64,000 bases of DNA from an uncultured Gammaproteobacteria bacterium. Its GTDB lineage: Bacteria > Patescibacteriota > Patescibacteriia > 2-01-FULL-39-33. Below the pieces are notes generated by a model, which was given only the letters and a program-made list of their open reading frames with translations, ran no database searches and was not told the DNA's origin. The stretch spans positions 15,419-79,418 of the forward strand of contig CAZHYS010000003.1 of NCBI GenBank assembly GCA_964536975.1, in the 5' to 3' direction. Below, one piece after another: positions 1,625-52,324 of this stretch (the stretch's first letter is position 1; every line of letters starts with the position of its first letter). The translations under genes and the position numbers were made by a program.

Positions 1625-1690
1625 GTCTGCTCGTCTCGCGTCGGCGCGAGCCGAGGCGGAAGCTATGGGCACGCTTGATTATCTAACTCG
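1625..1690. repeat. hairpin (ctcgcgtcggcgcgag) + 'ccgaggcggaagcta' + copy of tRNA-Lys 5' end (agctatgggc)
   Basis: The same architecture recurs at 9183-9452 and 23752-23800, each time with the local tRNA's 5' end. Confidence 0.55.
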
Positions 1691-6135: not shown

Positions 6136-7662
6136 TTAATTTTGACTGTGCAGAAGACGCTTTCGTTCCTCTTCGTAGAAGGCAATATCCGGGTGCATGT
6201 TTTTCAATTCTTTCGCCGGCAATTCATTTAATTCCTTTATCCTTTCGGCCAGATATTTTTCATTATTTTTTTCCGGGTTTTCCAATACTTCGCCCAGTAG
6301 CGCATTGAGAATCAGTCCTATTTGCGGTCCGGGTGAGATACTCAATATTTCCATCACCTTGCTACCGTCGGTTTTGAGCATCTTGGGGCTGATGGGATCA
6401 AGCTGGACTTCTTTGAGCCGGCGTTCCAATTCCACCAGCTTCCACGGTTTGGCTTTTGGCCGGCCCATGCCCAGTCGGTCGCAAATGCGCAGATTGATAA
6501 AATCCTCAACATTGTCTTTGCCCAGTCGGTTGAGTAGTCGTCGCACTCCTGCGTCGCTGACGATATCCAACGCGTAATAAAACATATGATAGCGGACCAA
6601 GTGGACGACGCTCTTGATAATGTCGTTGGAATAATTAAGCCGCTTTAGGATTTGCTTTGTTTGGTGGGCGCCCTCTTGGTCGTGATTATAAAAGGTGGCG
6701 TCGCCGTCCTTGATTTGTTTGGTTCTTGGCTTGCCGACATCATGAAACAAAGCGGCCAATCTTATCTCCAATTTGTAATTTCTTTCTGCCGCCGCGCCGA
6801 GCGATCGGACATTATGATCAAATACTTCGTAAATGTGAGCTTTATTTTGTTTGACACCAACTCCATTTTCCAGCTCTGGTATCAATTCTTTGAGCAGGCC
6901 GATTTTTTGCATCAGGCGGATGCCGGCCTCGGCCCGCTCCGACATAATGATTTTGGTCAGCTCTTCATTGACCCGTTCAGCCGGCAGAGTGGCGATTTTT
7001 TTTGCTTTTTTACTGATGGTGGCCAAGGTTTCCTTCTCAATATCAAAGTCCAGTTGGCAGGCGAAACGCACCGCCCGCAGCATTCTGGTATAATCTTCCT
7101 GGAATCTTTTTTCCGGCTTGCCGATGGCGCGGATTATTTTTTTGTCCAAATCTTTGAGTCCGTCAAACTCATCAATTAGTTTTTTGTTTTTAATGTCCCA
7201 GGCCAAAGCGTTGACGGTAAAGTCGCGGCGGGAGAGATCTTTTTCAATCGGCAGATTTTTATCGCTCTGGATTTCAAAGTCTTGATAACCGCCAGACATG
7301 CCGGCTTTTTCCGTCCGCGGCAAAGCAATTTCAATCGGGTTGGCGCCGGTTATTTTGCTTGCTTTTGCCGATGAGACCTTCGCTTTCGCGGGGATGAATT
7401 TGAAGACGCCAAAACTTTTGCCGACAAGGTTGACTTCACCTAGATCTGACAAGAATTTTTCCAAGTCCTTAGCGTCCACTTTGCCGACGACAAAATCAAA
7501 GTCTTTCGTGTCACGGCCGATGATGATGTCGCGAGTCGCGCCGCCGACCAAATAAATTTCCGCTGCCGGAAAGGATTTGAGCAATTTTTTGACAAAACCG
7601 AAATCTTTCTGCTTCAACGCAGACTCTTGCCAAACGGTTAATTTTTTTTCAATATTTTCCAT
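6136..7662 (-). CDS. cca: CCA-adding tRNA nucleotidyltransferase with HD domain
   Basis: It has a PolyA-pol head (LVGGATRDIIIGRDTKDFDFVV) and an HD motif (LAALFHDVGKP). Confidence 0.8.
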   Translation of the reverse strand: MENIEKKLTVWQESALKQKDFGFVKKLLKSFPAAEIYLVGGATRDIIIGRDTKDFDFVVGKVDAKDLEKFLSDLGEVNLVGKSFGVFKFIPAKAKVSSAKASKITGANPIEIALPRTEKAGMSGGYQDFEIQSDKNLPIEKDLSRRDFTVNALAWDIKNKKLIDEFDGLKDLDKKIIRAIGKPEKRFQEDYTRMLRAVRFACQLDFDIEKETLATISKKAKKIATLPAERVNEELTKIIMSERAEAGIRLMQKIGLLKELIPELENGVGVKQNKAHIYEVFDHNVRSLGAAAERNYKLEIRLAALFHDVGKPRTKQIKDGDATFYNHDQEGAHQTKQILKRLNYSNDIIKSVVHLVRYHMFYYALDIVSDAGVRRLLNRLGKDNVEDFINLRICDRLGMGRPKAKPWKLVELERRLKEVQLDPISPKMLKTDGSKVMEILSISPGPQIGLILNALLGEVLENPEKNNEKYLAERIKELNELPAKELKNMHPDIAFYEEERKRLLHSQN

Positions 7663-7727
7663 GAAATTTATGGCTATCTATGCTATTATAACCTTAAGAA
7701 ATATAAAAATGGTTAATTTATATTGAC

Positions 7728-7833
7728 GCCCCCCCTCCTTGTTTGAAGGAGGGGGAAGGGGGGAGGTTTTAAAGTATTAAAATTAGGTTTATTCTAACCC
7801 TCTCCTATCCTCCCCCTTCAGACAAGGGGGAGG
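7728..7833. repeat. two copies of the CCCCTCC...GGAGGGG hairpin repeat
   Basis: Copy 1 is ccccctccttgtttgaaggagggggaaggggggagg. Copy 2 is cctcccccttcagacaagggggagg. Confidence 0.7.
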
Positions 7834-7919
7834 AAAATAAGGTGAAAAGAATCAATGATTATTATAAGTATTATTGTATCATAAGTTTATTATTTTAGCT
7901 TAAATTAAGCGTAAAGTCA

Positions 7920-8678
7920 ATGATCAAGCTAAGCATCATCATCCCGGCGCTCAACGAAGAACGGTTTTTGCCGTTTCTTCTTACCTCCATCAAGAATCAG
8001 AATTTTGCCGAGGCCGAGGTCATTATTGCTGACGCCGGTTCTACCGACCGGACACTGGAGATTGCCGACAAATTCCAGGCCAGGGTGGTGTCTGGCGGTA
8101 TGCCGGCGGTGGGTCGCAATCACGGCGCCGCGGTCGCCGCGGGAGGGTGGCTGTTGTTTTTGGATTCGGATGTTATTTTGCCCAAGAGCTTTTTGGCGGA
8201 TATTTTGACCAGAGCGGAGGAAAAACAGATTGATGTCGCTTCTTGCGCCGTGGTGCCTCTTAGCGACAAAAATATTGATCTCATTCTTCATGATGTGGTC
8301 AATGCCTATATGTCGCTGACCCAATATTTTTACCCTCACGCGCCGGGTTTTTGCATTTTGATCAAAAAATCGTTGCACCAAAAAATCGGCGGCTTTGACG
8401 AACAGCTCAAATTGGCCGAAGACCATAATTATGTCAAACGGGCGAAAGAGGAGGGTAAATTCCGCATTCTGCAAAAACCGAAAATATTCGTTTCCGTTCG
8501 CCGACTGGAAGCCGACGGCCGGCTCAATATTTCCACCAAGTATCTTTTGTGTGAAGCGTACCGTCTGCTTCTGGGCGAGATTGACACGGATATTTTCAAA
8601 TACAAGTTTGGGCATTATAATGAAAAAGAAAAAGAGAGATTTATTGATCGGATAAAAAATAAATTACACTTGAAATAA
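7920..8678 (+). CDS. family 2 glycosyltransferase
   Basis: The N-terminus (MIKLSIIIPALNEERFLP...) and DxD-region motifs are typical of GT2. Confidence 0.8.
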   Translation: MIKLSIIIPALNEERFLPFLLTSIKNQNFAEAEVIIADAGSTDRTLEIADKFQARVVSGGMPAVGRNHGAAVAAGGWLLFLDSDVILPKSFLADILTRAEEKQIDVASCAVVPLSDKNIDLILHDVVNAYMSLTQYFYPHAPGFCILIKKSLHQKIGGFDEQLKLAEDHNYVKRAKEEGKFRILQKPKIFVSVRRLEADGRLNISTKYLLCEAYRLLLGEIDTDIFKYKFGHYNEKEKERFIDRIKNKLHLK

Positions 8679-8680
8679 AA

Positions 8681-8706
8681 ACATCCGCCTCGGGCGGATG
8701 TTTTCT
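8681..8706 (+). terminator. intrinsic terminator after the GT2 gene
   Basis: The hairpin acatccgcctcgggcggatgt is followed by tttct. Confidence 0.55.
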
Positions 8707-8712
8707 ACTGTA

Positions 8713-9057
8713 ATCAATAAGGGTGGTCGCTAGTGGAGTCGCTTGCCTCGCCGAAGCTTTGCGAAGGCGGGAACCACTATTCCTGGACAGCGCTGGATGC
8801 TTACTATGGTCGCATCCATCGACGCTCTCCCGAGAATTCGGGATCGCTTCTGTCCGTCTCGTCAGCTATGGCTGACTTCGACCCTTCCCGATTCATCGGG
8901 ACGCTCTTTCTTTCCGTGACGCTAAGCGCGGCATTAATGGAATTGTTATGAAAGTGTGGTCGCTAGTGGAGTCGAACCACTGACCTTCCCGATTCATCGG
9001 GACGCTCTTTCTTTCCGTGACGCTAAGCGCGGCATTAATGGAATTGTTATGAAAGTG
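8713..9057. repeat. tandem and dispersed duplications of the tRNA-Val 3' end (100-bp unit x2 plus a diverged third copy)
   Basis: The 28-nt tRNA 3' end tggtcgctagtggagtcgaaccactgac occurs at 8958-8985 and in the real gene at 9058-9085. The unit 8885-8985 is repeated at 8986-9085. A partial copy lies at 8723-8741, next to a tcgccgaagctttgcgaaggcgg hairpin. Confidence 0.7.
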
Positions 9058-9131
9058 TGGTCGCTAGTGGAGTCGAACCACTGACCTCATCCACGTCAAG
9101 GATGCGCTCTAACCAACTGAGCTAAGCGACC
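9058..9131 (-). tRNA. tRNA-Val (anticodon GAC)
   Basis: The reverse complement reads GGTCGCT-TA-GCTCAGTTGGTTAGAGC-G-CATCC-tTGACgt-GGATG...GGTTCGACTCC...AGCGACC-A. Confidence 0.8.
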
Positions 9132-9182
9132 GTAATACTTATTTTAATAAAATTCTCAAAATAATTTGAAAATAGTGGTCAT

Positions 9183-9452
9183 TCTTTAAATATGCTTGTC
9201 TCGCCGTAGCCTTGGCGAAGGCGGAAGCTAAGCGACCAAATATCTAATTCCGGTAAGTTTTTAAAATTATTTAAAGACGTTGTCTACTCTTTAAATATGC
9301 TTGTCTCGCCGTAGCCTTGGCGAAGGCGGAAACTAAGCGACCAAATATCTAATTCCGGTAAGTTTTTAAAATTATTTAAAGACGTTGTCTACTCTTTAAA
9401 TATGCTTGTCTCGCCGTAGCCTTGGCGAAGGCGGAAACTAAGCGACCGTAAT
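9183..9452. repeat. about 2.6 copies of a 105-bp tandem repeat; each unit = hairpin tctcgccgtagccttggcgaaggcgga + agctaagcgacc (tRNA-Val 5' end)
   Basis: The units start at 9183, 9288 and 9393 and are near-identical. A single a/g difference separates copy 1 from copy 2. Confidence 0.75.
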
Positions 9453-9499
9453 CAAGAGTATCTTAGTAAAAAAATTGCCAATTGTCAAAGATTTTGCAG

Positions 9500-9572
9500 T
9501 AGGCCAGGGTGGATTTGAACCACCGACATCTACGTTATAAGCGTAGCGCTCTAACCCCTGAGCTACTGGCCC
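9500..9572 (-). tRNA. tRNA-Ile-like (anticodon TAT)
   Basis: The reverse complement reads GGGCCAG-TA-GCTCAGGGGTTAGAGC-G-CTACG-cTTATaa-CGTAG...GGTTCAAATCC. The 5-bp anticodon stem CTACG/CGTAG is perfect, so the anticodon reads UAU. Confidence 0.65.
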
Positions 9573-9624
9573 ATATTAATTATATTCTAAACATTTGTAA
9601 CTAATTTTATCACAACACCTTCTA

Positions 9625-9732
9625 GCCCCGCCTGCCCGCCTCGCGTCGGCGCGAGCCGAGGCGGAAAATACTATTCATTATTTTTTTGTCTTTAAACCCC
9701 TCCCTACCCTCCCCTTCGGATAATGGGAGGGA
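9625..9732. repeat. hairpin ctcgcgtcggcgcgag + ccgaggcggaa motif, followed by a CCTCC hairpin repeat (ccctccccttcggataatgggaggg)
   Basis: Both parts are members of the two repeat families seen throughout the window. Confidence 0.6.
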
Positions 9733-9800
9733 AAAAAGAAATATCACCTCTCTAAATATACTTCATTGTCGTTATTTTTTCAAGCTCTTTCAGTGAGTTT

Positions 9801-10946
9801 TTAAATCTTTTTCAGGAAATTATTGATCTCTTCAACAATTTCTCGCTCCGCCTCCACGAGCGATTTTCCAAACAGAGAAAATTTTGCCAAGTCAGCGTTG
9901 CCTTCAGAATTAAATCTTTTCGCCATCTCCCGTGAGTCAATGCTTTTGACGGAATAAAGCAAGCAGTCAATGCTTGTTTTGTTCAAGTCGCTATTTTCAT
10001 AGATGAGAGCGATAATTTCCGTTTTGGGCATGGTGGCAATAAGTTCCTCCACAACATCGGCAACCTCTTCCGGCGTGGTGGAAGTCTCCAAGAAATCTTG
10101 GCGGGAAATAGTGGACCAGACGACACGGCCATTGTCTTCGCTGTTGAGTCGCGAGAGTATCCGCCCCCACAATTTCAGGGTGGACAAAAATCGAGTTTGG
10201 TATAAATTTTGGATGATTTGCTCGCGCCGAGCTCCGCTAGCGATAAGTAATCCGGCCAGATTGAGAGTTCGCGGGGTTACTTCGGCGGTTTTAAAGTTTT
10301 TAGTCGCGCTGATTACGCCTGCTAGCAGGCTGGTGGCGATATTTTCATCAATCAGGCGTTCGTCCATATCCTTCACCAGCTGATAGACGATTTCCGAAGT
10401 TGAGGCGGCGGATAGATCGGTTAGGTTGATATCGCCATAATGCTCGTTTTTGTTGGAGTGATCCAAATTGATTTTTGGCGTGGCAAAAAAGAAATCGGAA
10501 TTTTTTTTGTATACGTCGCCAAGCGATTCCAGGTCAGGCGTATTGAGTAGAAAAATCAGATCGTATTTGAAGTCGGCGGCGGCAGTAGTGACATTTTGAT
10601 CTTGGAGTTTTCCTTCTTCTGGCGTAATATAAAAATTCAGTCGCCCATCCTCGCGGTCGTAATAAAATTCACCGACTTTTATCTGAGCCGTATCCACGCT
10701 AACAACGAATTTTTGGAGATTTTTGAGTTGGTTTTTGATTTTGTCCAGCGGTAGGAACGATAGGCTCGGTTTCGGCCGAAAATCCTGGCAGACAACGTCA
10801 ACGTTTTTTCCCATTTTTTCCAGTGCTTGCGCCAACGCCAAGCCGGCGGCGATGGCGTCGCCAGTCCATTCTTGCCGGAAAGCGACCATGATCGCTCGGC
10901 TTCTTTTGATTAGCTCCAATGTTTGCTGGGTTGGATTCAAGGCCAT
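9801..10946 (-). CDS. DHH/DHHA1-family phosphoesterase-like protein (NrnA-like; catalytic motifs look partly degenerate)
   Basis: The N-terminus AIMVAFRQEWTGDAIAAGLALAQALEKMGKNVDVV aligns to the DHH domain. It reads LDHS instead of DHH, and the GGGH-like motif is weak. Confidence 0.55.
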   Translation of the reverse strand: MALNPTQQTLELIKRSRAIMVAFRQEWTGDAIAAGLALAQALEKMGKNVDVVCQDFRPKPSLSFLPLDKIKNQLKNLQKFVVSVDTAQIKVGEFYYDREDGRLNFYITPEEGKLQDQNVTTAAADFKYDLIFLLNTPDLESLGDVYKKNSDFFFATPKINLDHSNKNEHYGDINLTDLSAASTSEIVYQLVKDMDERLIDENIATSLLAGVISATKNFKTAEVTPRTLNLAGLLIASGARREQIIQNLYQTRFLSTLKLWGRILSRLNSEDNGRVVWSTISRQDFLETSTTPEEVADVVEELIATMPKTEIIALIYENSDLNKTSIDCLLYSVKSIDSREMAKRFNSEGNADLAKFSLFGKSLVEAEREIVEEINNFLKKI

Positions 10947-22817: not shown

Positions 22818-23075
22818 TGTGGGTGGCTACTGGGATAATCTTCGCGAATCGCCAACAGAAACTTGGCGATTTGCTCCGCCCTGGGTGGCGGCCAATCCTG
22901 CTCGCTTCGCCGAATCTAGGCGAGCGCCAGCCCTGCCTGCCGGCAGGCAGCTCGGATCGGCCTGAAGTTTCGCTTTGGCGCTCGCCTTCCGTCTCGCTTC
23001 TCGCTCAACTTGCCACCCGTTCAACTCCCGACCCAAATTAAAAAGATGGACAAAATAATGTCCATCTTTTTAATT
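22818..23075. repeat. GC-rich about 240-bp segment bounded by a direct repeat of the tRNA-His 3' end, with an inverted partial copy and central palindrome
   Basis: The string gggtggctactggga at 22822-22836 matches 23078-23092 in the tRNA. The stretch 23010-23040 is an imperfect inverted copy (...caactcccgacccaaatt). The palindrome aaaagatggacaaaataatgtccatctttt lies at 23041-23071. Confidence 0.6.
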
Positions 23076-23149
23076 TGGGTGGCTACTGGGAGTTGAACCC
23101 AGACTAACGGGACCACAACCCGCTGTTCTACCGCTAAACTATAGCCACC
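23076..23149 (-). tRNA. tRNA-His (anticodon GTG, encoded G-1)
   Basis: The reverse complement reads G-GTGGCTA...GCGGG-tTGTGgt-CCCGT...GGTTCAACTCC...TAGCCAC-C. Confidence 0.75.
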
Positions 23150-23345: not shown

Positions 23346-23368
23346 GATTGCCTGACGGGATCGGGCGG

Positions 23369-23442
23369 CGTCCGCGGCAGGATTCGAACCTGCGACCTAC
23401 AGCTTAGAAGGCTGTTGCTCTATCCAGCTGAGCTACGCGGAC
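23369..23442 (-). tRNA. tRNA-Arg (anticodon TCT)
   Basis: The reverse complement reads GTCCGCG-TA-GCTCAGCTGGATAGAGC-A-ACAGC-cTTCTaa-GCTGT...GGTTCGAATCC...CGCGGAC-G. Confidence 0.8.
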
Positions 23443-23509: not shown

Positions 23510-23800
23510 CATTTTCCTCCCCCTTTACAAGGGGGAGGTAGGAGGGGGTAAATTAATTATGATATTTACCTCAATTACCCCTCCCTAACCCGTTCCTGGG
23601 CAGAGCTAATCGCTCCCAATGGTCGCGATTATCTACGCTCGCTTCGCATCGCTTCTGCCCGTCCTTCGGACCCCTTATAAATGGGAGGGAAAGAATAATC
23701 GTAAACAATGCTAACAATTTTTATAATTAAATTTTTAAAATTTTATTTCTTTACTCGTCTCGCCGTAGCCTTGGCGAAGGCGGAAGCTACGCGGACATAA
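23510..23800. repeat. CCTCC hairpin repeats (23516-23549, 23671-23690) and hairpin + cgaaggcggaagcta + tRNA-Arg(TCT) 5'-end copy (23752-23795)
   Basis: The string ctcgtctcgccgtagccttggcgaaggcggaagctacgcggac matches the tRNA 5' end (g)agctacgcggac at 23432-23442. Confidence 0.65.
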
Positions 23801-23994
23801 TGATTCTCTTAGAAAAAATAACTGTAAATAACTGTCAAAACCAAAAAGAATTCTATAGGGCATAAATCATGATAACAGTTTTTTGGGCAAAAGTCAATTG
23901 ATTTTTTTCGGATTATCTGGTAAAATTTGTTTGTTCAAAAGAGGGGGCATAATGTTGGCAGAAACACCCTCCAAATATAAATTAACTCCCAAAT

Positions 23995-44841: not shown

Positions 44842-44910
44842 TTTTAGTTTGACTTTTGGAGCCGAAAGTGGGAAAATTATGGTATTAATTTAATTCTTGT
44901 TTCCAAAATT

Positions 44911-46944
44911 ATGGCAAAAATCTTAGAAATCATCAAAGACTCAAGTTATAATCTTTCAATTTTTGATCAGAAACTGATTGACGAGCTGGAAGGTAAAGTC
45001 ACCACAAAAGACGGCAAATCTTATGTTGTTTGCGCTATCCGAGATAAAGAAATAATTTTGAAGCCGGAGGAGGTTGTCCGCCAGCTCTATGCGATGAAAC
45101 TGCTTGAAGATTACGGCTATCCAAAACAAAGAATCAAATTTGAACACGCAATCCATTTTGGCCGTGAGGTAAAATCTGCCGACATTGTTATTTTTGACAA
45201 AGACCGCCCGACTGTTGAATACATCATTGTTGAAATTAAAAAACCAAAACTCCAAGACGGAAAAAACCAGCTCCGCTCCTACACCAACGCCACTGGTGCG
45301 CCGATTGCCGTTTGGACCAATGGTGGACAAATTTCGCATTACAACCGCAAAGACCCAAATTACTTTGAAGACATTACCGATATTCCAAAAGCCGACCAAA
45401 CGCTTGAAGATATTTTGAAAGAAAGATTTACTCTTAAAGACTTAATCATCAAAGACAAAATCCCGAACGAGGGGAAATCGCTCAAAACCATTATTCAGGA
45501 AATGGAAGATGAAGTTTTGGCAAATGCGGGCGTAGATGTCTTTGAAGAAGTTTTTAAACTTATTTTCACCAAACTGTACGATGAATTACAGAGCAAAAAA
45601 GACAAAATGCGTCTGGAAATTTATCTTGAGGATAAATTAAGCAAAGAAGATCGCGGAGATTATGACAAAGTAAAAGAAATTTTGGCAAAAATTGACGATT
45701 CCAGTTTCAGAGTTTTGGAATTTAGAAACACAGGTCAATCCGAGAGCGAACTAAAAAATAAAATTCAAAAACTTTTTGACGAAGCCAAAGCCAAATGGCC
45801 GGGCGTTTTTGACGAAGCAAGCCAAATTCAGCTTTCGCCCTCTCATCTTTCCGTCAGCGTTTCCAGTTTGCAGGATATAAAACTTTTCAATTCCAATCTG
45901 CAAATCATAGACGAAGCCTTTGAATACTTGGTCAATAAATCATCAAAAGGCGAAAAAGGCCAATACTTCACGCCTCGTCATGTGATTGATATGTGCGTCA
46001 AAATGCTCAATCCGAAAGCTGGCGAATACATGGTAGATACTGCCGCCGGTTCTTGCGGATTTACCGTTCATACGATTTTTCAAATCACCGGACATTTATT
46101 CCAAAACACCGACATTTCCGAGGAAGAAAAAGAAAATGTGCTTAAAGTATTCGGTATTGATTTTGATGAAAAAGTCGTGCGCGTTGCTCGCACTTTAAAC
46201 TTGATCGCCGGAGACGGAAATACCAACGTTTTACATCTCAACAATCTTGATTATGAACGCTGGAATGAATCAATCCAAAATCGCGACTGGCTGGAAGTGT
46301 ACGGAGCGGGATTAAAACGCCTCGAAGCTCTACAAAAAGATAAAAGTTCCTACAAAGAATTTAATTTTGATATTCTCATGGCAAATCCGCCATTTGCCGG
46401 AGACATCAAAGAATCGCGCATAATCCACAAATACGATCTTGGCTACAACGAAAAAAACAAACCAAAATCAAAAGTTGGGCGCGATATTTTGTTTATCGAA
46501 AGAAACTTAAACTTTTTGAAGCCGGGCGGAAGAATGGCGATTGTTTTACCACAAGGCCGTTTTAATAATACTTCTGACAAGGCAATTCGCGAGTATATCG
46601 CCGAAAAAGGCAGAATCCTTGCCGTAGTCGGGCTTCATGTAAACACTTTTAAACCGCACACGGGAACAAAAACCAGCGTGCTTTTTGTGCAGAAATGGGA
46701 CGACAAGCTTTGCCCGAAAGTGGAGGATTATCCGATTTTCTTTGCCGTTTCCGAAAAATCCGGCAAGGACAATTCCGGCGAGTATGTTTTCGTCAAAAAC
46801 GGCAACAATCAGCCGAAACTAGATAAAAATGGGCACTTGATAATCAATCATGACTTGCACAATCACGACGGCGAATTGCCCGACGGCGTAGCGGAAAAGT
46901 TTATTGAATGGGCGAAGTCGGAAAAATTAAGTTTTTGGAAATAA
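44911..46944 (+). CDS. restriction-modification fusion protein: N-terminal PD-(D/E)xK (HsdR_N-like) domain + gamma-class N6-adenine methyltransferase (BcgI-like Type IIB / Type I HsdM-like)
   Basis: It has the nuclease-like motif ADIVIFD...EYIIVEIKKP. The MTase motif I is VDTAAGSCGF and motif IV is NPPF (LMANPPFAG). No HsdR is nearby. Confidence 0.7.
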   Translation: MAKILEIIKDSSYNLSIFDQKLIDELEGKVTTKDGKSYVVCAIRDKEIILKPEEVVRQLYAMKLLEDYGYPKQRIKFEHAIHFGREVKSADIVIFDKDRPTVEYIIVEIKKPKLQDGKNQLRSYTNATGAPIAVWTNGGQISHYNRKDPNYFEDITDIPKADQTLEDILKERFTLKDLIIKDKIPNEGKSLKTIIQEMEDEVLANAGVDVFEEVFKLIFTKLYDELQSKKDKMRLEIYLEDKLSKEDRGDYDKVKEILAKIDDSSFRVLEFRNTGQSESELKNKIQKLFDEAKAKWPGVFDEASQIQLSPSHLSVSVSSLQDIKLFNSNLQIIDEAFEYLVNKSSKGEKGQYFTPRHVIDMCVKMLNPKAGEYMVDTAAGSCGFTVHTIFQITGHLFQNTDISEEEKENVLKVFGIDFDEKVVRVARTLNLIAGDGNTNVLHLNNLDYERWNESIQNRDWLEVYGAGLKRLEALQKDKSSYKEFNFDILMANPPFAGDIKESRIIHKYDLGYNEKNKPKSKVGRDILFIERNLNFLKPGGRMAIVLPQGRFNNTSDKAIREYIAEKGRILAVVGLHVNTFKPHTGTKTSVLFVQKWDDKLCPKVEDYPIFFAVSEKSGKDNSGEYVFVKNGNNQPKLDKNGHLIINHDLHNHDGELPDGVAEKFIEWAKSEKLSFWK

Positions 46945-46970
46945 ATTATAATTTTAAATTACACAATCTT

Positions 46971-48053
46971 ATGAAGAAAAAAAATATTGAAGAATTAAAT
47001 AATGAATTTTTTGAAAAAGAAGATTCTGACGATGAATCTTTAAAACTTAAAGGGCCAATTATTAGTTATGGGGCGGACTACACTCTCGATTCAATTCGAC
47101 AGTACGTAAATGAGAGTAAGCAAATTATTGTACAGCCAAGCTTCCAAAGAAAATTTGTTTGGGATATAAAAAAGGCCAGCAAATTAATAGAATCTTTCAT
47201 TCTTGGTTATCCCGTGCCGAACATTTTGCTTGGGAGAGATCCTGATACTGAGGTCATGGAAGTAATAGATGGCCAGCAGAGAATTTTATCTATATGCGAC
47301 TTCTTTAAGGGCAGATTTAGAGACGAAAAAGTTTTTAAGTTAGCTGGCGATATTGACCAAAAATTTTTAAACAAAACCTTTGACGACCTAGATGAAGCTA
47401 TTCAAAAGAAATTAAGAAACGCGGTTTTGAAGGCTGTGGTCTTTGTCTATCCAAAAGATGACCCAAATATAAAATTTACAGCATTTCAACGTATTAACAC
47501 GGGGAGCGTTGTTTTAAACCAGCAAGAAATCAGAAACTGCATTTATGGGGGATCGTTAAATGATTTACTATTTAAAATAAATGAATACAACGAAGAATGG
47601 AGAGAACTCCTTGCTAAAAAACCGGATAAAAGAATGAAGGATGTAGAAACAATCTTGAGATTTTTTGCCGCTTACTTTAAAGGAAAAGATTATGAAAAGC
47701 CAATCACTAAATTTCTTAACGAATTTATGAATAAGAATAAAAATCTTTCTGAAGAAAAAGGAGCCGAATGGCAAGAATTATTTAACCAAACACTATCTAT
47801 CATTGTAAAAAATATTGGTAGCTCATTTCCCCGCACATCAAAATCAAAAACATTTAATAGAGCAGTTTTTGAATCTGTTATGACCGCCATAGCAGAACTG
47901 AAGAAAGAAAATAGGCTAAAAGTCAAATATTTAAAACGAAACTATACCAAACTAGTAGAAGATCCTAATTATCTTGATTCGGTAACTTCACAAACTTCCG
48001 ACAAGAAAAACTATAAAAACAGGATTGAAATAGCAATTAAAATGCTCTCGTGA
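46971..48053 (+). CDS. DUF262 (ParB/Srx-like NTPase/nuclease superfamily) domain protein
   Basis: The DGQQR motif (VIDGQQRILSI) is present. The ORF track starts at 46908, overlapping the RM gene stop. I use the ATG at 46971. Confidence 0.65.
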   Translation: MKKKNIEELNNEFFEKEDSDDESLKLKGPIISYGADYTLDSIRQYVNESKQIIVQPSFQRKFVWDIKKASKLIESFILGYPVPNILLGRDPDTEVMEVIDGQQRILSICDFFKGRFRDEKVFKLAGDIDQKFLNKTFDDLDEAIQKKLRNAVLKAVVFVYPKDDPNIKFTAFQRINTGSVVLNQQEIRNCIYGGSLNDLLFKINEYNEEWRELLAKKPDKRMKDVETILRFFAAYFKGKDYEKPITKFLNEFMNKNKNLSEEKGAEWQELFNQTLSIIVKNIGSSFPRTSKSKTFNRAVFESVMTAIAELKKENRLKVKYLKRNYTKLVEDPNYLDSVTSQTSDKKNYKNRIEIAIKMLS

Positions 48054-48063
48054 TTTTATATGT

Positions 48064-48624
48064 ATGAACGTTATTTTGGAAAGAAAAAAATATGTTGTTC
48101 GATTACTCGAGAATATAGAGAATTATCCTTCTACCAATCAATTCAAGCAAGAAATGATGACCTTTTCGTATGTTATAGTTTGTGGCGCTATTGAATTTAT
48201 GACAGAAACCATAATACAAGATTGGTTGAGTAAAACAATCAAACATCATAAAAGCTCATCCTACTATCGGGGGAGAAAATATGTTCAATATTTTTTAGAC
48301 ATTCAATCTCAAGCGCGAGAAAAAAATATTGACGATTTTCATAGTACAAACTTAGATAGCATTAGAAATCTTATTAAAGAGATGGCGGGAGAAACAGCGC
48401 GGAATAAATTTAATAACTTGTTTCAAAGTGCTCAAAACACTTTGGCATTGCAGCCGGATTTAAACGAGAGACTTAAACGAATTACCGATACTCGTCATTA
48501 TTTAGCCCACGGACAAAAAGTCCCAAATGATATACAACCCAATGTCCGGGAATTAAGAGAAGATTTTCTTTTTATATACAAGCATATTATAAATAATATC
48601 AAAAAATGTTTACCAAAAGTATAA
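48064..48624 (+). CDS. hypothetical protein, putative HEPN-like (Rx4H motif RHYLAH near C-terminus)
   Basis: It is alpha-helical with a C-terminal R-x4-H motif. It sits between the MTase and S subunit, like the abortive-infection and PrrC-like passengers of Type I loci. Confidence 0.35.
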   Translation: MNVILERKKYVVRLLENIENYPSTNQFKQEMMTFSYVIVCGAIEFMTETIIQDWLSKTIKHHKSSSYYRGRKYVQYFLDIQSQAREKNIDDFHSTNLDSIRNLIKEMAGETARNKFNNLFQSAQNTLALQPDLNERLKRITDTRHYLAHGQKVPNDIQPNVRELREDFLFIYKHIINNIKKCLPKV

Positions 48625-48631
48625 AATAACT

Positions 48632-50050
48632 ATGCAATATTCAGTTGTAAAATTCAAAGGAGTTTTAGTCGATAATGACATATTCAGATTCGATGCTGAT
48701 TATTTTTATCCAAAATCATACAACCTTTATAAAACGATAATAAATAAAAATTTTGCAAGAGTGAAAGAAAGTTTTAATGTTACAAAATTAGCTGGTTTTG
48801 AATACACCAAATATTTTACTGATCCAAATATCAATTCAGACGATTTCTATATTGTTTTAACCAGTAAGAATATTCAAAACGAAGAATTGGTCTTAAATGA
48901 ATATCTTAAAATTGACAAAAAAGTTGCTGACGAATTTTTGAAGCGTTCTAACCTTAAAAAAGGAGATGTTGTTTTGTCATATACTGGGGAATATAGAAGA
49001 GCATTAGTTCTAGAAGAGAACGATTTTCAACTTGGACCAAATATCTGCCTCATTCGTAGCAAAAATAAAAATATCGATTCTTATTATTTATCTACTTTTT
49101 TAAATTCTAACGCTGGTCAGCTTTTACTTGATCGTGAAAAAACACTTTCTGCACAACCTACTGTCGCGATGTCAAGAATAAGAGAAATACCAATTCCGGT
49201 GTTAGATATAGATTTTCAAAATCGAATTGGTGAAATTATTACATCATCAAAAACAAAAAGAAAATCTGCAAACAATCTCTATTTCCAAGCCGAACAATTA
49301 CTCCTTTCCGACTTGGGGCTTTTGGACTGGAAGCCAAAGCACGAACTGGCTTTTGTCAAAAACTTTTCCGCAACACAAGAATCCGAGCGTTTTGACGCAG
49401 AGTATTTTCAACCAAAATACGAGGAAATCGTTGATGCAGTGAAAAAATACAAAGGTGGATTTGATGAATTGGGCAATTTGGTAAAAATCAAAGACAAGAA
49501 TTTTACGCCCAAAGACAACGAGCAATACAAATACATTGAGCTTGCCAACATTTCATCAAACGGCGAAATAAATGGCTACATTGAAAATTTTGGCAATGAA
49601 CTGCCGTCAAGAGCGCGTCGTAAAGTACAAAAAGGCGATCTGATTGTTTCGTCCATTGAAGGATCACTTGAAAGTATTGCTTTAATAACGGAAGACTGGA
49701 AAAACGCTTTATGCTCCACCGGATTTTTTGCTGTCAATTCAGATAAAATTAATTCCGAAACCTTGCTTATTATATTAAAAACAAAAATCGGGCAATTGCA
49801 ACTAAAGAAAGGTTGCAAAGGAACAATTTTAACCGCTATCGGCAAAGAGGAATTGTCCAAAATAGTTTTGCCAAAAATTGATTCAAAAACGCAACAAGAA
49901 ATCAAAAAGAAAATAACTGAGATGTACGAAACGAAAAAATTATCTAAATCATTACTTGAAATTGCCAAGCGAGGCGTGGAAATGGGAATAGAAAAAGACG
50001 AGCAAGAAGCAGAAAAATGGATCAATAAAGAGGTTAAAAAAATTAATTAA
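48632..50050 (+). CDS. hsdS: restriction-modification specificity (S) subunit with two TRDs
   Basis: It has the HsdS/BcgIB-like duplicated target-recognition architecture and conserved spacer helices. Confidence 0.75.
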   Translation: MQYSVVKFKGVLVDNDIFRFDADYFYPKSYNLYKTIINKNFARVKESFNVTKLAGFEYTKYFTDPNINSDDFYIVLTSKNIQNEELVLNEYLKIDKKVADEFLKRSNLKKGDVVLSYTGEYRRALVLEENDFQLGPNICLIRSKNKNIDSYYLSTFLNSNAGQLLLDREKTLSAQPTVAMSRIREIPIPVLDIDFQNRIGEIITSSKTKRKSANNLYFQAEQLLLSDLGLLDWKPKHELAFVKNFSATQESERFDAEYFQPKYEEIVDAVKKYKGGFDELGNLVKIKDKNFTPKDNEQYKYIELANISSNGEINGYIENFGNELPSRARRKVQKGDLIVSSIEGSLESIALITEDWKNALCSTGFFAVNSDKINSETLLIILKTKIGQLQLKKGCKGTILTAIGKEELSKIVLPKIDSKTQQEIKKKITEMYETKKLSKSLLEIAKRGVEMGIEKDEQEAEKWINKEVKKIN

Positions 50051-50053
50051 CAT

Positions 50054-50950
50054 ATGTCCACCTACTACAACCCAAACAGAGACGCCTCTTGGAACTATGG
50101 CGGAAATAATTGGAAATTAAGCCGGTCAAAGATTGATTTGTTTTTGGAATGTCCAAGATGTTTTTATTTGGATAATAAACTCGGCACAAAGCGAGTGCCC
50201 GGATTCCCTTTTTCTATAAATAGCGCGGTGGATTATCTTTTAAAGCAGGAGTTTGATTCCTATCGTGTTAAAAACGAACAACATCCACTTCAAAAAGAAT
50301 ATGGTATAGATGCTCGGCCAATGTCGCACGCCGAGCTGGATGAATGGCGGCGGAATTTTGGCGGCGTCAGATATCTGCACGAACCGACCGGACTGTTGGT
50401 GACCGGCGCGATTGATGATTTGTGGGTGACTATCCCTCCCACCTCCCCTAGCCCCTCCTCGGGCAGGAGGGGAAAGTTAGAATATTCGGCAAACCCCTCT
50501 GTGTCTCCCCTTGGAAAGGGGAGAAAGTCAGAAGATTTGGCAAACCTCTCCGCGTCTCTCCTTGGAAAGGGGGGAAAGTTTGAGCCGGAATGTATTGTGG
50601 TTGATTATAAAGCTACAGCCAAAGATGAGGCCGTAAAGGAATTAGATAAAGAGTGGCAAGATGGCTACAAACGGCAAATGGAGGTGTACCAGTGGCTACT
50701 GCGGAAAAATGGTTTGAAAGTCTCTGATGTTGGTTATTTTGTTTATTGCACCGGCAAAATGGATCGCCAGGCTTTTGACAAGAAGATTGAATTTGATGTT
50801 AATTTAATTGAACATAGAGGTGATGATTCTTGGGTAGAGAAAACTCTTTTTGACATCAAGAAGTGTCTGGACGGCGACGTCATCCCGAAGTCTGGCAAAA
50901 GTTGTGATTGGTGCGCTTATTTCGCGGCCAGAAAAAAATCAGAAAAATAA
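50054..50950 (+). CDS. Cas4-like / RecB-family PD-(D/E)xK nuclease with 4-Cys cluster, carrying an in-frame insertion of CCTCC hairpin repeats
   Basis: The N-terminal CPRCFY and C-terminal CDWCAY form a CxxC pair. The core reads IVVDYK and the QxxxY-like motif is MEVYQWLL. The inserted repeats lie at 50440-50590 inside the frame. Confidence 0.55.
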   Translation: MSTYYNPNRDASWNYGGNNWKLSRSKIDLFLECPRCFYLDNKLGTKRVPGFPFSINSAVDYLLKQEFDSYRVKNEQHPLQKEYGIDARPMSHAELDEWRRNFGGVRYLHEPTGLLVTGAIDDLWVTIPPTSPSPSSGRRGKLEYSANPSVSPLGKGRKSEDLANLSASLLGKGGKFEPECIVVDYKATAKDEAVKELDKEWQDGYKRQMEVYQWLLRKNGLKVSDVGYFVYCTGKMDRQAFDKKIEFDVNLIEHRGDDSWVEKTLFDIKKCLDGDVIPKSGKSCDWCAYFAARKKSEK

Positions 50951-50974
50951 ATCTCCGGAGACATCTCCGGAGAT
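50951..50974. repeat. right boundary palindrome atctccggagac-atctccggagat
   Basis: It matches the left boundary at 44806-44841. Confidence 0.7.
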
Positions 50975-51058
50975 CGCCAGTTGATTTTTGGTGAATAATG
51001 TGAAAAGATTATAATTGGTAAGAATACAATTAATATATTGGTCGGTGATATTTTAATT

Positions 51059-51559
51059 ATGCATGACAAAGAAAAAAATTACGCTTTTATTGATAGCCAA
51101 AATCTGAACCTGGGAATTCAGAGCTTGGGGTGGAAGTTGGATTACAAAAGATTTAGGATTTATTTGCGGGAGAAGTATGGCGTTGAAGTTGCCTATTTGT
51201 TTATTGGCTATATACCAGGAAATCAGGATTTATATTCATCGCTTCAATCTTGCGGGTATGTTTTGGTTTTCAAGCCGACCATTCCCGATCAGAATGGAAA
51301 TATAAAAGGAAATGTTGATGCCGACTTGGTTTTGCAGGCGTTATTGGATTATGAAAAATATGACAAGGCAGTTATCATCACAAGCGATGGAGATTTTTAT
51401 TCTTTGGTTAAATACTTATATCGGCAGGGCAAATTAAAATTTGTCATGAGCCCATATATCAAAACTTGTTCCATATTGCTCAAGAAAACAGCACAAGAAA
51501 GAATTATTTTTATGGATAATCTAGAGAAAAAACTTAGTTATAATAAAAAACACCGCTAA
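51059..51559 (+). CDS. NYN/LabA-like PIN-fold domain protein (putative RNase)
   Basis: It has YAFIDSQNL, DADLV and ITSDGDF motifs typical of NYN domains. Confidence 0.6.
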   Translation: MHDKEKNYAFIDSQNLNLGIQSLGWKLDYKRFRIYLREKYGVEVAYLFIGYIPGNQDLYSSLQSCGYVLVFKPTIPDQNGNIKGNVDADLVLQALLDYEKYDKAVIITSDGDFYSLVKYLYRQGKLKFVMSPYIKTCSILLKKTAQERIIFMDNLEKKLSYNKKHR

Positions 51560-51670
51560 GGGATGAGGCCCGTAGAGGTATTTTTTATGTGTATTCTGAT
51601 TGTATTATAAAGCGTTTTATAAACTTTGTCAATAGCGGTAAATATTATTAAAATTAAACAATCAAATTCC

Positions 51671-51889
51671 ATGCGAAAATTGGAAAAACAAAACATCCGC
51701 AAGCTCGGCAAGACCGGCCGCGGCGCCAGCATCACCATCACCCTGCCGATTGAAATCATTCGTGATTTAAAATGGCGCGACGGCCAAAATGTTGTGGTCA
51801 CTCGGCGCGGTCAAGGAATCGCGATCAGCGACTGGCCGGCCTCCGCTAAAGCTTCGGCGAGCCGAGGGAAACCGCAAAATAAAAAATAA
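51671..51889 (+). CDS. small AbrB/MazE/SpoVT-like DNA-binding protein
   Basis: The sequence GKTGRGASITITLPIEIIRDLKWRDGQNVVV resembles the swapped-hairpin barrel. Confidence 0.4.
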   Translation: MRKLEKQNIRKLGKTGRGASITITLPIEIIRDLKWRDGQNVVVTRRGQGIAISDWPASAKASASRGKPQNKK

Positions 51890-51962: not shown

Positions 51963-52322
51963 GACCTCCCCTACCTCCTTCTCGTATTTTTATTACCCCT
52001 CATTGTTTGAAGGAGGGGTCGTCAAAATTGTAATCAGTTTGATTTTTCCTCCCCCTTGTTTGAAGGGGGAGGACAGGAGGGGGTGAAAAAATATTAATTA
52101 GACCTCCCCTTACCCCCTCCTTCAGACAAGGAGGGGGAAAAGATGCCAGCTCGGCTTCGCTCAGGGCAGGCTCCCTCCTCCATCCGCCAAAGGCGGACAA
52201 ATGGACAAGGAGGGGGAATAAATCCTGTATCTTTCCCTACCCCCCCCTCACCCCTAATTTTTAGCCCCTAACCCCTAATCGTTAAACGCTAACAGCTAAT
52301 CGCTAATTGCTAATCCCTGTCC
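51963..52322. repeat. cluster of CCTCC hairpin repeats + ctaatcgctaattgcta word repeats (left flank of helicase gene)
   Basis: There are at least 4 hairpin copies, and ccctaacccctaatcgttaaacgctaacagctaatcgctaattgctaatcc runs up to the ATG. Confidence 0.75.
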
Positions 52323-52324
52323 AA

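Follow-up and report, generated by a model that had tools for sequence, protein, structure and literature searches.

In the window (the whole 64-kb stretch of DNA that was analysed), an intact tRNA-Val(GAC) gene was located on the minus strand at 9058–9131, with its lower boundary at 9057 or 9058, by ARAGORN and by the Rfam tRNA model (68.4 bits). Its sequence is identical in relatives, such as the one carrying locus L163. The gene sits between orphan copies of its own two ends, and small non-coding folded inserts intervene. A BLAST search of the window with tRNA-Val returned nucleotides 45–75 as an exact copy at 8956–8986 (31 nt), nucleotides 57–75 at 8723–8741, and nucleotides 1–12 or 1–10 at 9226–9237, 9333–9342, and 9438–9447. 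A promoter of the ancestral type (TTGACA, 17 nt, TAAGAT) was found by promoter scan at 9460–9488 on the minus strand, and TTGACAATT is conserved in the spacer between tRNA-Ile and tRNA-Val at L163. This promoter now precedes the first orphan 5′ stub and not the intact tRNA-Val. On the other side, a bidirectional terminator hairpin at 8678–8704 (inverted repeat I11 and the sequence itself) closes both the tRNA operon and a convergent glycosyltransferase gene. The orphan 3′ end stands in front of this terminator, and the intact gene is flanked on both sides by inserted DNA. The order of promoter, orphan 5′ stub, orphan 3′ end, and terminator is the topology of an attL/attR-type partial duplication. 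The DNA bracketed in this way at the tRNA loci (170–350 nt) contains no credible open reading frame (ORF), and a spurious 72-aa ORF lying over the locus returned no record elsewhere on look-up.

The 5′ flank is a tandem array at 9183–9447 with a period of 105 nt, 2.5 copies, and 99% identity, as measured by Tandem Repeats Finder (TRF). In each unit, all of which are read on the minus strand, a tRNA-derived stub is followed by a 30-nt palindrome. Unit A (9343–9452) comprises the orphan original 5′ end (ATTAC plus tRNA nucleotides 1–10), the palindromic element at 9405–9434 (repeat family D12), and an AT-rich tail. Unit B (9238–9342) is an exact copy of unit A, with 0 mismatches, a stub of nucleotides 1–10, and the palindromic element at 9300–9329. 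Unit C (9132–9237), which adjoins the intact gene, carries a stub of nucleotides 1–12, the palindromic element at 9195–9224, and a diverged AT-rich tail, in which a promoter-like site (TTCAAA, 18 nt, TAAAAT; 9141–9170) lies directly upstream of the intact tRNA-Val. A preceding sequence-only reading had described about 2.6 copies of a 105-bp unit, each with the hairpin and the first 12 nucleotides of the tRNA. The array itself was recovered, but all 12 nucleotides are present only in the tRNA-proximal unit; a C-to-T change at position 11 shortens the match to 10 in the remaining two stubs.

The 3′ flank is a second array, at 8883–9087 (TRF: period 101, 2.0 copies, 100% identity), which bears out the suggestion that a unit of about 100 bp with the tRNA-Val 3′ end is tandemly doubled. 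In unit 1 (8984–9084, minus strand), the final 27 nt of tRNA-Val come together with a 24-nt spacer and with 49 diverged nt from the 5′ part of a tRNA-Val-like copy, and unit 2 (8883–8983, minus strand) is identical to it, with a further 3-nt AGG completing the array. The repeat can thus be described as the 24-nt spacer plus a degenerate full-length tRNA-Val copy, in which the 5′ 49 nt are diverged and the 3′ 28 nt are identical to the gene; identity falls abruptly from 100% to about 65% at AGG/TCAGTGG. Together, units 1 and 2 form an uninterrupted pseudo-tRNA, which aligns with tRNA-Val at 8957–9033 and reaches 18 bits with the Rfam tRNA model at 8957–9030. This pseudo-tRNA is a by-product of the tandem duplication, and so is one of the apparent tRNA 3′ ends of the array.

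The orphan original 3′ end of tRNA-Val (AGTGGTT ... CGACTCCACTAGCGACCAC) lies at 8723–8778 on the minus strand and is followed, as in relatives, by an ACCACC trailer. It is split by a 30-nt GC-rich palindromic element (8742–8771, minus strand), which comparison with the intact T-arm and pattern matching place within the T-loop, between GTGGTT and CGACTCC; a target duplication is absent. A third, diverged 3′ fragment had been reported beside a hairpin at 8716–8775. A third copy of the 3′ end does exist, but the hairpin is inside its T-loop and does not merely adjoin it. In this same tRNA-Val copy, the oldest of the 3′ copies, the variable loop is interrupted by a 104-nt three-way-junction element (8779–8882, minus strand). 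This interrupted copy has no acceptor-stem pairing (GCCGCGC versus AGCGACC), and its anticodon loop has 6 nt.

Both arrays are best explained as recent slippage duplications, in which each flank would have been amplified between short repeats to give the 101-nt array of two copies and the 105-nt array of 2.5 copies. Head-to-tail identical or nearly identical units are present on both sides (8883–9087, 2 × 101 nt plus AGG, 100%; 9183–9447, 2.5 × 105 nt, 99%), and junction microhomology, the 3-nt AGG, was seen for the 3′ array only. Two units plus AGG constitute the signature of a single microhomology tandem duplication, and the tandem copies do not testify to serial integration and excision. 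The complete identity of the 3′ array and of units A and B indicates that the arrays are recent. Slippage accounts for copy number alone and does not tell how the stubs, the pseudo-tRNA, or the inserts came about. It is very improbable that the arrays are artefacts of a metagenome-assembled genome that has only single copies, even though units of about 100 nt with 100% identity are such that short-read assemblers can miscount them. Logan assemblies of other sequencing runs reproduce 8568–8912 and end exactly k−1 bases (30 nt) into the first 101-nt unit. Such ends would reflect a de Bruijn branch at the unit boundary, which would not come from a single-copy unit. In addition, the 5′ array, with its diverged third unit and C/T difference, is unlike a collapsed or expanded exact repeat, and the stubs, the third 3′ copy, and the inserts are independent of copy number.

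The insert pattern was found at all three tRNA operons of the window. A stub of tRNA-Arg(TCT) nucleotides 1–12 followed by the palindromic element occurs at 23754–23796 (minus strand), 345 nt upstream of the intact gene (23367–23442), and is found in 5 Logan runs; five Logan contigs begin inside its hairpin. The third stub-plus-hairpin (1629–1674, minus strand) lies about 60 nt upstream of tRNA-Arg(TCG) and consists of GCGTGCCCATAGCT, a diverged stub, with a hairpin variant, TCCGCC...GAGACGAGC. On the 3′ side of tRNA-His, the segment 22821–23076 (minus strand) holds an AT-rich hairpin together with a strongly folded, GC-rich insert of roughly 200 nt (fold z = −8.2); this insert starts with an inverted T-loop copy and ends with the final 15 nt of tRNA-His repeated in direct orientation, after which a terminator follows. 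Three stubs break exactly at tRNA position 12, beside the palindrome, and these breaks imply a site-specific step.

The 30-nt palindrome belongs to a dispersed family. Its hairpin pattern has 6 exact matches in the window, compared with 0 in 100 shuffles, and 7 copies were counted in the 64 kb, compared with none in about 60 kb of relatives. The family was also detected in at least 120 metagenome contigs with a GC content of 0.33–0.75. The palindrome ends are CCGCC... and ...GGCGAG-NCARG, with GTAG or GAAG in the internal loop, and the NCARG tail, which lay outside the search pattern, is conserved across these contigs. In many of them, an inverted copy directly follows the palindrome. Only 7 of about 120 contigs have it near a tRNA, and some copies are in coding sequence. 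Another copy in the window (62781–62810) sits in the loop of a GGGGC...GCCCC palindrome, again with no target duplication. A literature search for the hairpin sequence returned unrelated primers only. The suggestion that the repeats reflect slippage expansion of a tRNA-associated regulatory element is thus partly upheld: slippage fits, but the hairpin is a dispersed palindrome of many unrelated metagenome contigs, found in coding regions and mostly away from tRNAs.

The three-way-junction element constitutes a second family. The 104-nt insert folds into a P0 hairpin and a three-way junction, in which P1 (GGACAG/CUGUCC) meets two arms, one containing a tandem-GA internal loop and the other bearing a GACCAU loop. 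A second copy in the window (23585–23676, minus strand) is located between the tRNA-Arg(TCT) stub and the intact tRNA-Arg(TCT). In a relative (locus L174), tRNA-Arg nucleotides 1–18 are followed by the junction element, nucleotides 20–29, and then the intact gene, with the interrupted copy having no 3′ half. At another locus of the same genome (L183), tRNA-Ile is followed by an insert with P1 GGGCAG/CUGCCC and then a copy of the tRNA-Ile 3′ end. The element sits in loops of disrupted tRNA copies, namely the variable loop for tRNA-Val here and the D-loop of the tRNA-Arg copy in the relative, and in two genera it lies upstream of tRNA-Arg(TCT), beside a nitroreductase gene. Nitroreductase-anchored loci in further relatives (L173 and L176–L182) have no tRNAs at that position.

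With regard to its structure, the conserved features are an AAGCGA ... GAGCG junction, the tandem-GA arm, and P1 followed by NGGAA or CGGAC. The two window copies differ by 6 compensatory pairs. When the L174 copy is added, the three copies share 27 pairs, in which 68 of 68 cells are Watson-Crick, 15 pairs show compensatory changes, and no G-U pair occurs; this alignment was made by hand, MAFFT having misaligned L174. Minimum-energy folds of the Val and L174 copies give the three-way junction, whereas that of the window Arg copy differs in arm 2. On the basis of this covariation and folding, the element is a real conserved fold, known from four or five copies in two lineages. A descriptor scan of 1.27 Mb recovered only the known copies and one chance match. 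When the two window copies alone were used for a covariance model, about 840 kb of loci yielded no additional copy and the L174 copy was also missed, so the homology of the latter rests on manual alignment and synteny. An exact-pattern search of GTDB representative genomes, for which the pattern from two copies of one genome was too narrow, gave 33 matches, all coding or chance and none with P1 pairing. Scans of viral contigs (IMG/VR) with the same junction pattern and two relaxed patterns gave chance matches only.

Several known RNA classes were considered. At lenient thresholds, Rfam gave nothing credible at any of the four loci, and the 104-nt insert has no Rfam match. Hammerhead, hairpin, HDV-like, and twister ribozymes were rejected by inspection, as their core motifs are absent, and Rfam returned no match to them. 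Box C/D or K-turn RNA was dismissed for want of the boxes, and T-box or riboswitch gave no match. ARAGORN predicted no tmRNA, and the corresponding Rfam hit, on the opposite strand at 23661–23831, reached 19.9 bits against a threshold of 47 with low posterior probabilities.

The locus was compared across relatives, as had been proposed. At L163, L165, and L167, a plain arrangement of tRNA-Ile, 59 nt, tRNA-Val, and terminator is found, without stub, hairpin, or pseudo-tRNA, which indicates that all of the extra DNA, including the additional tRNA ends, is a lineage-specific gain. Occupancy varies by genome, the insert being at tRNA-Val here, at tRNA-Ile in L183, and absent in L163.

The preferred explanation, to which we assign a probability of roughly 0.45, is that dispensable partial copies of tRNA genes host small structured inserts that are non-autonomous. 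The starting state would have been a plain tRNA-Ile/tRNA-Val operon. Partial tRNA copies would then have arisen on both sides, leaving an intact tRNA-Val between an orphan 5′ stub and an orphan 3′ end, and two families of small, structured, non-coding inserts would have settled in these dispensable pieces. The first would be the 30-nt GC-rich palindrome, with REP-type behaviour, which lies in the orphan T-loop, adjoins position 12 of the stubs, and is also present in the loop of another palindrome and in coding regions; the second would be the three-way-junction element of about 80–105 nt in the loop of a disrupted tRNA copy. Because neither family encodes protein, any movement must depend on an enzyme acting in trans or on recombination between the D-box and T-loop boxes common to tRNA genes. 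We infer the mobility of the inserts, their route of insertion, and the origin of the partial tRNA duplications. The window yielded no gene for a transposase, integrase, or reverse transcriptase by which the inserts might be moved, and no excised or autonomous form was found. The small number of known junction-element copies also counts against this explanation, as do the three stub breaks at exactly tRNA position 12, with the site-specific step that they imply. The far orphan tRNA pieces are 100% identical to the intact gene, whereas the near pieces are about 35% diverged or missing, a pattern that simple decay of duplicates does not explain and that att-type identity blocks fit better. All copies are also oriented as the tRNA and lie inside tRNA transcription units, which makes a transcribed functional RNA possible. 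A TIGR or CRISPR-like array was rejected, as the units are identical and have no spacers, and so was a casposon or transposon with a fixed target duplication, as terminal inverted repeats are absent and repeat lengths vary.

A bolder form of this explanation, which is a possibility of rather low probability, is that the junction element of about 100 nt belongs to a previously undescribed class of miniature mobile elements colonising tRNA-gene loops in Patescibacteria, in which case the orphan tRNA ends would be by-products of insertion and not att sites. Such an element may move as folded single-stranded DNA via an HUH-type or other recombinase, or as RNA (a ribozyme or intron relic) by a reverse reaction.

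The principal rival is that phages or integrative elements with tyrosine integrases entered the tRNA genes, duplicating the tRNA segment carried by attP, and were then almost wholly deleted, their att-proximal remnants being amplified by slippage. A complete and a partial tRNA copy flanking foreign DNA are the standard product of integration (PMC9897764), and the arrangement of the tRNA copies here matches that product. Direct tRNA-identical repeats surround DNA that is absent in relatives, where the sites are empty, and they measure 25–31 nt on the 3′ side and 10–17 nt on the 5′ side. The abrupt loss of identity at AGG/TCAGTGG also fits, and on the 3′ side the identity blocks begin within or close to the T-loop (linear nucleotides 45–50 in Val, the T-loop in Ile of L183, and the 3′ T-stem strand in His). 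The T-loop region is reportedly a preferred integrase sublocation, a finding said to go back to Williams in 2002. The reading of these tRNA-end copies as a classic integration footprint holds for the gain in this lineage and for the attL/attR-type topology, but not for the shared modules of 170–350 nt, and no element or phage with the 28-nt tRNA-Val end came up among INPHARED phages or in the IMG/VR pattern scans. No integrase gene lies in or beside the bracketed DNA, as had been noted already from sequence, and Pfam detected none in any window ORF of at least 150 aa in the 64 kb. Neither the search of INPHARED phages with the 3′ region nor the IMG/VR pattern scans gave a matching phage or viral contig. 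Furthermore, the remnants are all of 170–350 nt with modules common to different tRNAs and sublocations, including D-arm 5′ stubs, a sublocation seldom chosen by integrases; deletions that occurred independently would not each end with one and the same module of about 100 nt; and a single attP cannot hold cognate ends for Val, Arg, His, and Ile. On balance, integration scars are considered an unlikely source of these copies.

It is also improbable, to a slightly greater degree, that no dedicated mobile element is involved, and that local tandem tRNA duplications together with ectopic recombination at the conserved D-box (TAGCTCAG) and T-loop (GGTTCGA) exchanged flanking modules among tRNA loci, with the structured element being a putative small RNA transcribed as part of tRNA operons and released by tRNA processing. 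The junctions do coincide with the two tRNA boxes of highest conservation (position 12/13 and the T-loop), each stub equals its own species' tRNA exactly (12/12 here and 18/18 in L174), all four junction-element copies share the strand of the tRNA and lie between promoter and terminator, and its position upstream of tRNA-Arg(TCT) next to the nitroreductase gene is shared by two genera. However, the lack of G-U pairs in 68 helix cells is odd for a selected RNA and fits a hairpin at the DNA level, occupancy differs between genomes, and the palindrome is also present in coding regions and many unrelated contigs. A split or trans-assembled system, in which the 5′ stubs (5′ acceptor strand and hairpin) pair with the orphan 3′ ends (T-arm, 3′ acceptor strand, and hairpin) as tRNA-like complexes or decoys, is highly improbable. 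The stub can pair perfectly with the orphan 3′ end to form an acceptor stem, both are identical to the live tRNA while neighbouring sequence is diverged, and the same hairpin module is on both pieces. Nevertheless, a 3′ partner is missing at the Arg loci, where there is a stub, a stub is missing at the His and Ile loci, where there is a 3′ piece, the hairpins are of the same sense and not complementary, and the intact tRNA-Val makes assembly unneeded.

Partial tRNA copies are routinely read as scars of prophages or islands and are used to delimit genomic islands. In the very small Patescibacteria genome analysed here, they enclose no more than a few hundred bases of strongly folded, reusable non-coding DNA. 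If the inserts are self-propagating, island calling based on tRNA fragments would misfire in Patescibacteria, and streamlined genomes would be seen to tolerate, or to be unable to purge, tRNA-associated selfish DNA. Two motifs absent from Rfam are described here, the covarying three-way-junction element and the 30-nt palindrome conserved across contigs of very different composition.

Among known systems, attL/attR duplications resemble the locus in that identity blocks run from inside the gene to just past its end and the 3′ blocks start around the T-loop. They differ in that the bracketed DNA here is short and non-coding, with modules common to different tRNA genes, and in that some blocks are 5′ and end in the D-arm, with neither an integrase nor a parent element found. 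Slippage or microhomology tandem duplication is approached by the two 3′ units with their shared AGG and by the identical 5′ units A and B. REP and REPIN sequences are repetitive extragenic palindromes, and their mobilisation is attributed to RAYT tyrosine transposases (PMC3733652), which are IS200/IS605-like Y1 enzymes. As an imperfect palindrome within the range of 20–40 nt, which is GC-rich, dispersed in many copies in and between genes, able to enter loops of other palindromes, and in many metagenome contigs directly followed by an inverted copy, the 30-nt element is similar to them; it lacks the terminal GTAG or CGTC tag by which one end of such palindromes is usually marked, and the Pfam scan of the window ORFs showed no RAYT gene. 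Each classical REP family is specific to a species, whereas one palindrome sequence and its NCARG tail occur here across contigs of very different GC content. To our knowledge, REP elements have not been described as fused to tRNA position 12. Archaeal split or permuted tRNAs have complementary leader and trailer sequences and no intact gene, a combination not found at this locus. The tRNA group I introns of the same phylum are comparable in that a structured RNA-like element interrupts tRNA sequence. The group I core (RF00028) gave no match at E ≤ 5 over 7500–10500 and none at the Arg and His loci or L174, and the sole hit, at L183, had 10.4 bits (E = 2.3), where the threshold is 50. Splicing would not restore an intact tRNA here, since the Val copy is dead and the L174 copy is without its 3′ half. 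Those introns are over 200 nt long, lie in the anticodon loop at 35/36, are recognised by Rfam Intron_gpI, and split a gene that has no other functional copy, whereas the present element of 80–105 nt is found next to an intact gene, in a dead copy whose variable loop or D-loop it occupies.

Partial copies of tRNA-Val(GAC) (9058-9131, -) lie on both sides of the intact gene, downstream of tRNA-Ile(TAT) (9499-9572, -); all features of this locus are described here in the tRNA sense, which is the minus strand. TRF detected a 3′ tandem array at 8883-9087 (period 101, 2.0 copies, 100%) and a 5′ tandem array at 9183-9447 (period 105, 2.5 copies, 99%), while a BLAST search of the window with the tRNA recovered exact copies of its linear nt 45-75 at 8956-8986 and nt 57-75 at 8723-8741, as well as its nt 1-12 or 1-10, copied at 9226-9237, 9333-9342, and 9438-9447. 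Because 12 nt would match at a given position with a probability of about 6e-8 and the hairpin pattern has six matches in the window versus none in shuffles, these copies cannot be chance, and the repeated tRNA-Val ends reported by the sequence-only reading are thus upheld. Matches in independent Logan assemblies cover 8568-8912 and end exactly 30 nt inside the first 101-nt unit, probably because the k = 31 graph branches at the boundary of the unit, which would place the duplication in those samples as well.

Flanking proteins identify the host as a Patescibacteria genome. The ancestral comparison was based on three relatives (L163, L165, and L167; DHH protein 67% identical), all of which keep the gene order ValRS, DHH, tRNAs, (GrpB), GT2, CCA enzyme, and RluD. 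In their tRNA part, tRNA-Ile(TAT) is separated by a 59-nt spacer with TTGACAATT from an identical tRNA-Val, after which comes only a terminator. From this plain arrangement it follows that the window lineage gained about 310 nt upstream and about 335 nt downstream of tRNA-Val. The original gene ends are the stub that follows the conserved promoter and the 3′ piece next to the terminator; the intact gene is now flanked on both sides by inserted DNA. A GrpB gene, which sits between tRNA-Val and the glycosyltransferase gene in the three relatives, is absent from the window (8678-9057 vs. L163 6460-7260), where the tRNA-derived inserts adjoin the glycosyltransferase terminator. The tRNA-Ile anticodon is TAT (UAU) in the window and in all relatives examined (L163, L165, L167, and L183). 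The usual anticodon of such a tRNA-Ile is CAU, modified to lysidine, and the TAT form suggests that the lineage decodes AUA without TilS.

Upstream of tRNA-Val, three units (A outermost, C adjoining the intact gene) each open with GGTCGCTTAG(C/T)T, continue with TCCGCCTTCGCCAAGGCTACGGCGAGACAAGC, and end in an AT-rich tail. Units A and B do not differ in sequence, and unit C has the first 56 nt in common with them and a diverged tail. Only in unit A is the stub preceded by ATTAC, as is the real gene, and only this unit lies behind a good promoter (TTGACA, 17 nt, TAAGAT).

Directly 3′ of tRNA-Val, a 24-nt spacer leads into a 49-nt stretch (GCCGCGCTTAGCG...GGGAAGG) with about 65% identity to the 5′ two-thirds of tRNA-Val, without acceptor pairing and with an anticodon loop of 6 nt. 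This stretch is followed by the exact last 28 nt of tRNA-Val in the first 101-nt unit, and in the second it runs not into the tRNA 3′ end but into a 104-nt insert (8779-8882), beyond which come AGTGGTT, a 30-nt palindrome (8742-8771), CGACTCCACTAGCGACCA, an ACCACC trailer, and the terminator. Since the identity of the 3′ array comprises two units plus 3 nt (AGG), its sequence points to one microhomology tandem duplication, of which the uninterrupted pseudo-tRNA at 8957-9033 is a by-product. Before this event, the order would have been tRNA-Val, spacer, diverged 5′ part, and the 104-nt insert at the variable-loop position, followed by the original T-arm and acceptor 3′ strand with the palindrome in the T-loop.

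Similar arrangements occur at other tRNA genes. Nucleotides 1-12 of tRNA-Arg(TCT) and an identical palindrome are found 345 nt upstream of that gene, also in five further sequencing runs. tRNA-Arg(TCG) is preceded, 60 nt upstream, by a diverged 5′ stub, GCGTGCCCATAGCT, with a TCCGCC...GAGACGAGC hairpin variant (1629-1674, -), and an exact 26-nt copy of its nt 40-65 lies just 3′ of the gene, in the spacer before tRNA-Lys (1458-1483, -). tRNA-Ile likewise has this hairpin variant 60 nt upstream (9636-9664). The last 15 nt of tRNA-His recur as a direct copy 240 nt downstream, followed by a terminator; the approximately 200-nt GC-rich region before this copy (fold z = -8.2) starts with an inverted T-loop copy and may likewise belong to the insert family. 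On the same side of tRNA-His (22821-23076, -), a perfect 22-bp AT-rich hairpin precedes the GC-rich region, which is rich in AAGCGA/GAGCGA motifs. The 64 kb thus contain no tRNA operon, out of three, that is unaffected. A more distant relative was identified via its nitroreductase (73% identical; loci L174 and L183). Upstream of its intact tRNA-Arg(TCT) are nt 1-18 of that gene, a structured insert, nt 20-29, and a TTCTAA anticodon loop, an arrangement also present in an independent Logan contig, and 3′ of its tRNA-Ile, 58 AT-rich nt lead into an inverted T-loop copy, then a structured insert (z = -5.7), and then a direct copy of the last 19-20 nt of the gene.

The 104-nt insert at tRNA-Val and a copy at 23585-23676, between the Arg stub and tRNA-Arg(TCT), both carry CAGAAGCGAT, GAGCGT, GCGACCAT, and CCAGGAA and differ by six compensatory pairs. 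When the L174 copy was added to the alignment by hand, the three copies gave 27 pairs with Watson-Crick pairing in 68 of 68 cells and compensatory change in 15 pairs. The architecture is a three-way junction (P1, AA, a GC-closed arm with a GA/GA-type internal loop, GU, and a second arm), which the Val and L174 copies also show in their own minimum-energy folds, with the window Arg copy departing in arm 2; the L183 copy has P1 (GGGCAG/CUGCCC) and the CGGAC tail in common and a different interior. In 1.27 Mb scanned with a descriptor, only these copies and one chance match were found, Rfam gave no credible match at any threshold tried, and the libraries searched describe no counterpart of the element. 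It contains no G-U pairs, which is unusual for a selected RNA and would fit, without being decisive, a structure that needs to form in DNA. In both cases with two recognisable flanks, the element occupies a tRNA loop (variable loop in Val, D-loop in L174), with 2-3 nt missing and without target duplication. In one Logan sample (contig L001), the last base of the Val insert (window 8779) is C and not T (CCAGGAAC AGTGG), the sole difference from the window across 340 nt.

The palindrome has the consensus CCGCCTTCGC, a 3-5-nt loop, GCTWCGGCGAG, and then NCARG; the plus strand of the window gives its best fold (CUCGCC-GWA-GC-loop-GC-GAA-GGCGG, one U-G pair). Seven copies occur in the window versus none in about 60 kb of relatives, and at least 120 metagenome contigs with GC from 0.33 to 0.75 carry it. 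The NCARG tail, absent from the search pattern, is conserved among the matches listed (C in 101/118, G in 87/118), many of which have an inverted copy directly after the palindrome. Nearly the same sequence across such a range of composition is unusual for a REP-like repeat, and a larger context, GCGCGCAC-TT-hairpin-ACAAGCC-GTGCGCGC, is common to three contigs (L101, L121, and L145). In the T-loop of the orphan Val 3′ end the palindrome accounts for exactly 30 nt without duplication, and at 62781-62810 it occupies the loop of GGGGC...GCCCC. Two palindromes inside reading frames share one frame, encoding SA(F)AKASAS; one lies at the C-terminal end of a small AbrB/MazE-like ORF (window 51839-51861, +), the other within a RecG-like gene (L078, about 2579-2603). 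Of the alternative of a tRNA-associated regulatory hairpin expanded by slippage, the slippage part fits, but by its distribution the palindrome is not tRNA-specific: only 7 among the matches listed, from at least 120 contigs, have a tRNA within 600 nt, and some lie in reading frames.

Some other features of the window were also recorded. A second hairpin family consists of C-runs and G-runs (CCCTCCC...GGGAGGG, CCTCCCCCTT-GTAA-AGGGGGAGG; 7733-7831, 9700-9740, and 23520-23600) and includes a hairpin of about 100 nt between the CCA-enzyme and glycosyltransferase genes, with weak Rfam miRNA-model matches. A local match to the Rfam tmRNA model at 23661-23831 (+; 19.9 bits against a threshold of 47, E about 3e-6) lies antisense to the tRNAs and spans the AT-rich part of the Arg insert, in which AAUAAUCGUAAACAAUGCUAAC resembles the region before a tag frame; the match was judged spurious, given low posterior probabilities and no tmRNA by ARAGORN. 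A low-GC (0.32-0.40) block at 44900-51600, which encodes an N6 methylase/restriction fusion, GmrSD, a RiboL-PSP HEPN protein, a PD-(D/E)XK nuclease, and an NYN-domain protein, is probably a defence island and is followed by a Pif1-like helicase (52307-53992).

With regard to origin, the first of two explanations offered by the sequence-only reading was that the partial tRNA copies are scars left by integration at tRNA genes. This proposal holds for the layout, in that it explains the topology of the tRNA-Val locus, the empty sites in relatives, and the abrupt identity boundaries, and integration is a known source of tRNA fragments (PMC9897764). However, it fails on content: Pfam found no recombinase among window ORFs of 150 aa or more, viral-contig pattern scans and a phage database search yielded no parent element, the inserts are uniform in size (170-350 nt), and the same modules appear at Val, Arg, Ile, and perhaps His, at differing sublocations that include 5′ stubs ending in the D-arm. 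We therefore favour, at slightly less than even odds (about 0.45), structured inserts that are small and non-autonomous and come to occupy dispensable tRNA pieces; recent slippage would account for the arrays. The partial tRNA copies could have been produced by target-derived duplication during insertion, by ectopic recombination at two conserved tRNA boxes (D-box and T-loop), or by true att duplication. Two findings have no account from the insert reading, namely that all three stubs stop at tRNA position 12, adjoining the palindrome, and that the orphan pieces are 100% identical to the live tRNA next to sequence about 35% diverged; were both of equal age, 25 nt would have stayed unchanged with a probability of about 2e-5.

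The palindrome behaves in the way described for REP-type elements (PMC3733652), but it lacks their defining terminal GTAG/CGTC tag. The locus as a whole is not ordinary, and it combines variants of types already known: att-like tRNA duplications, REP-like palindromes, and slippage arrays.
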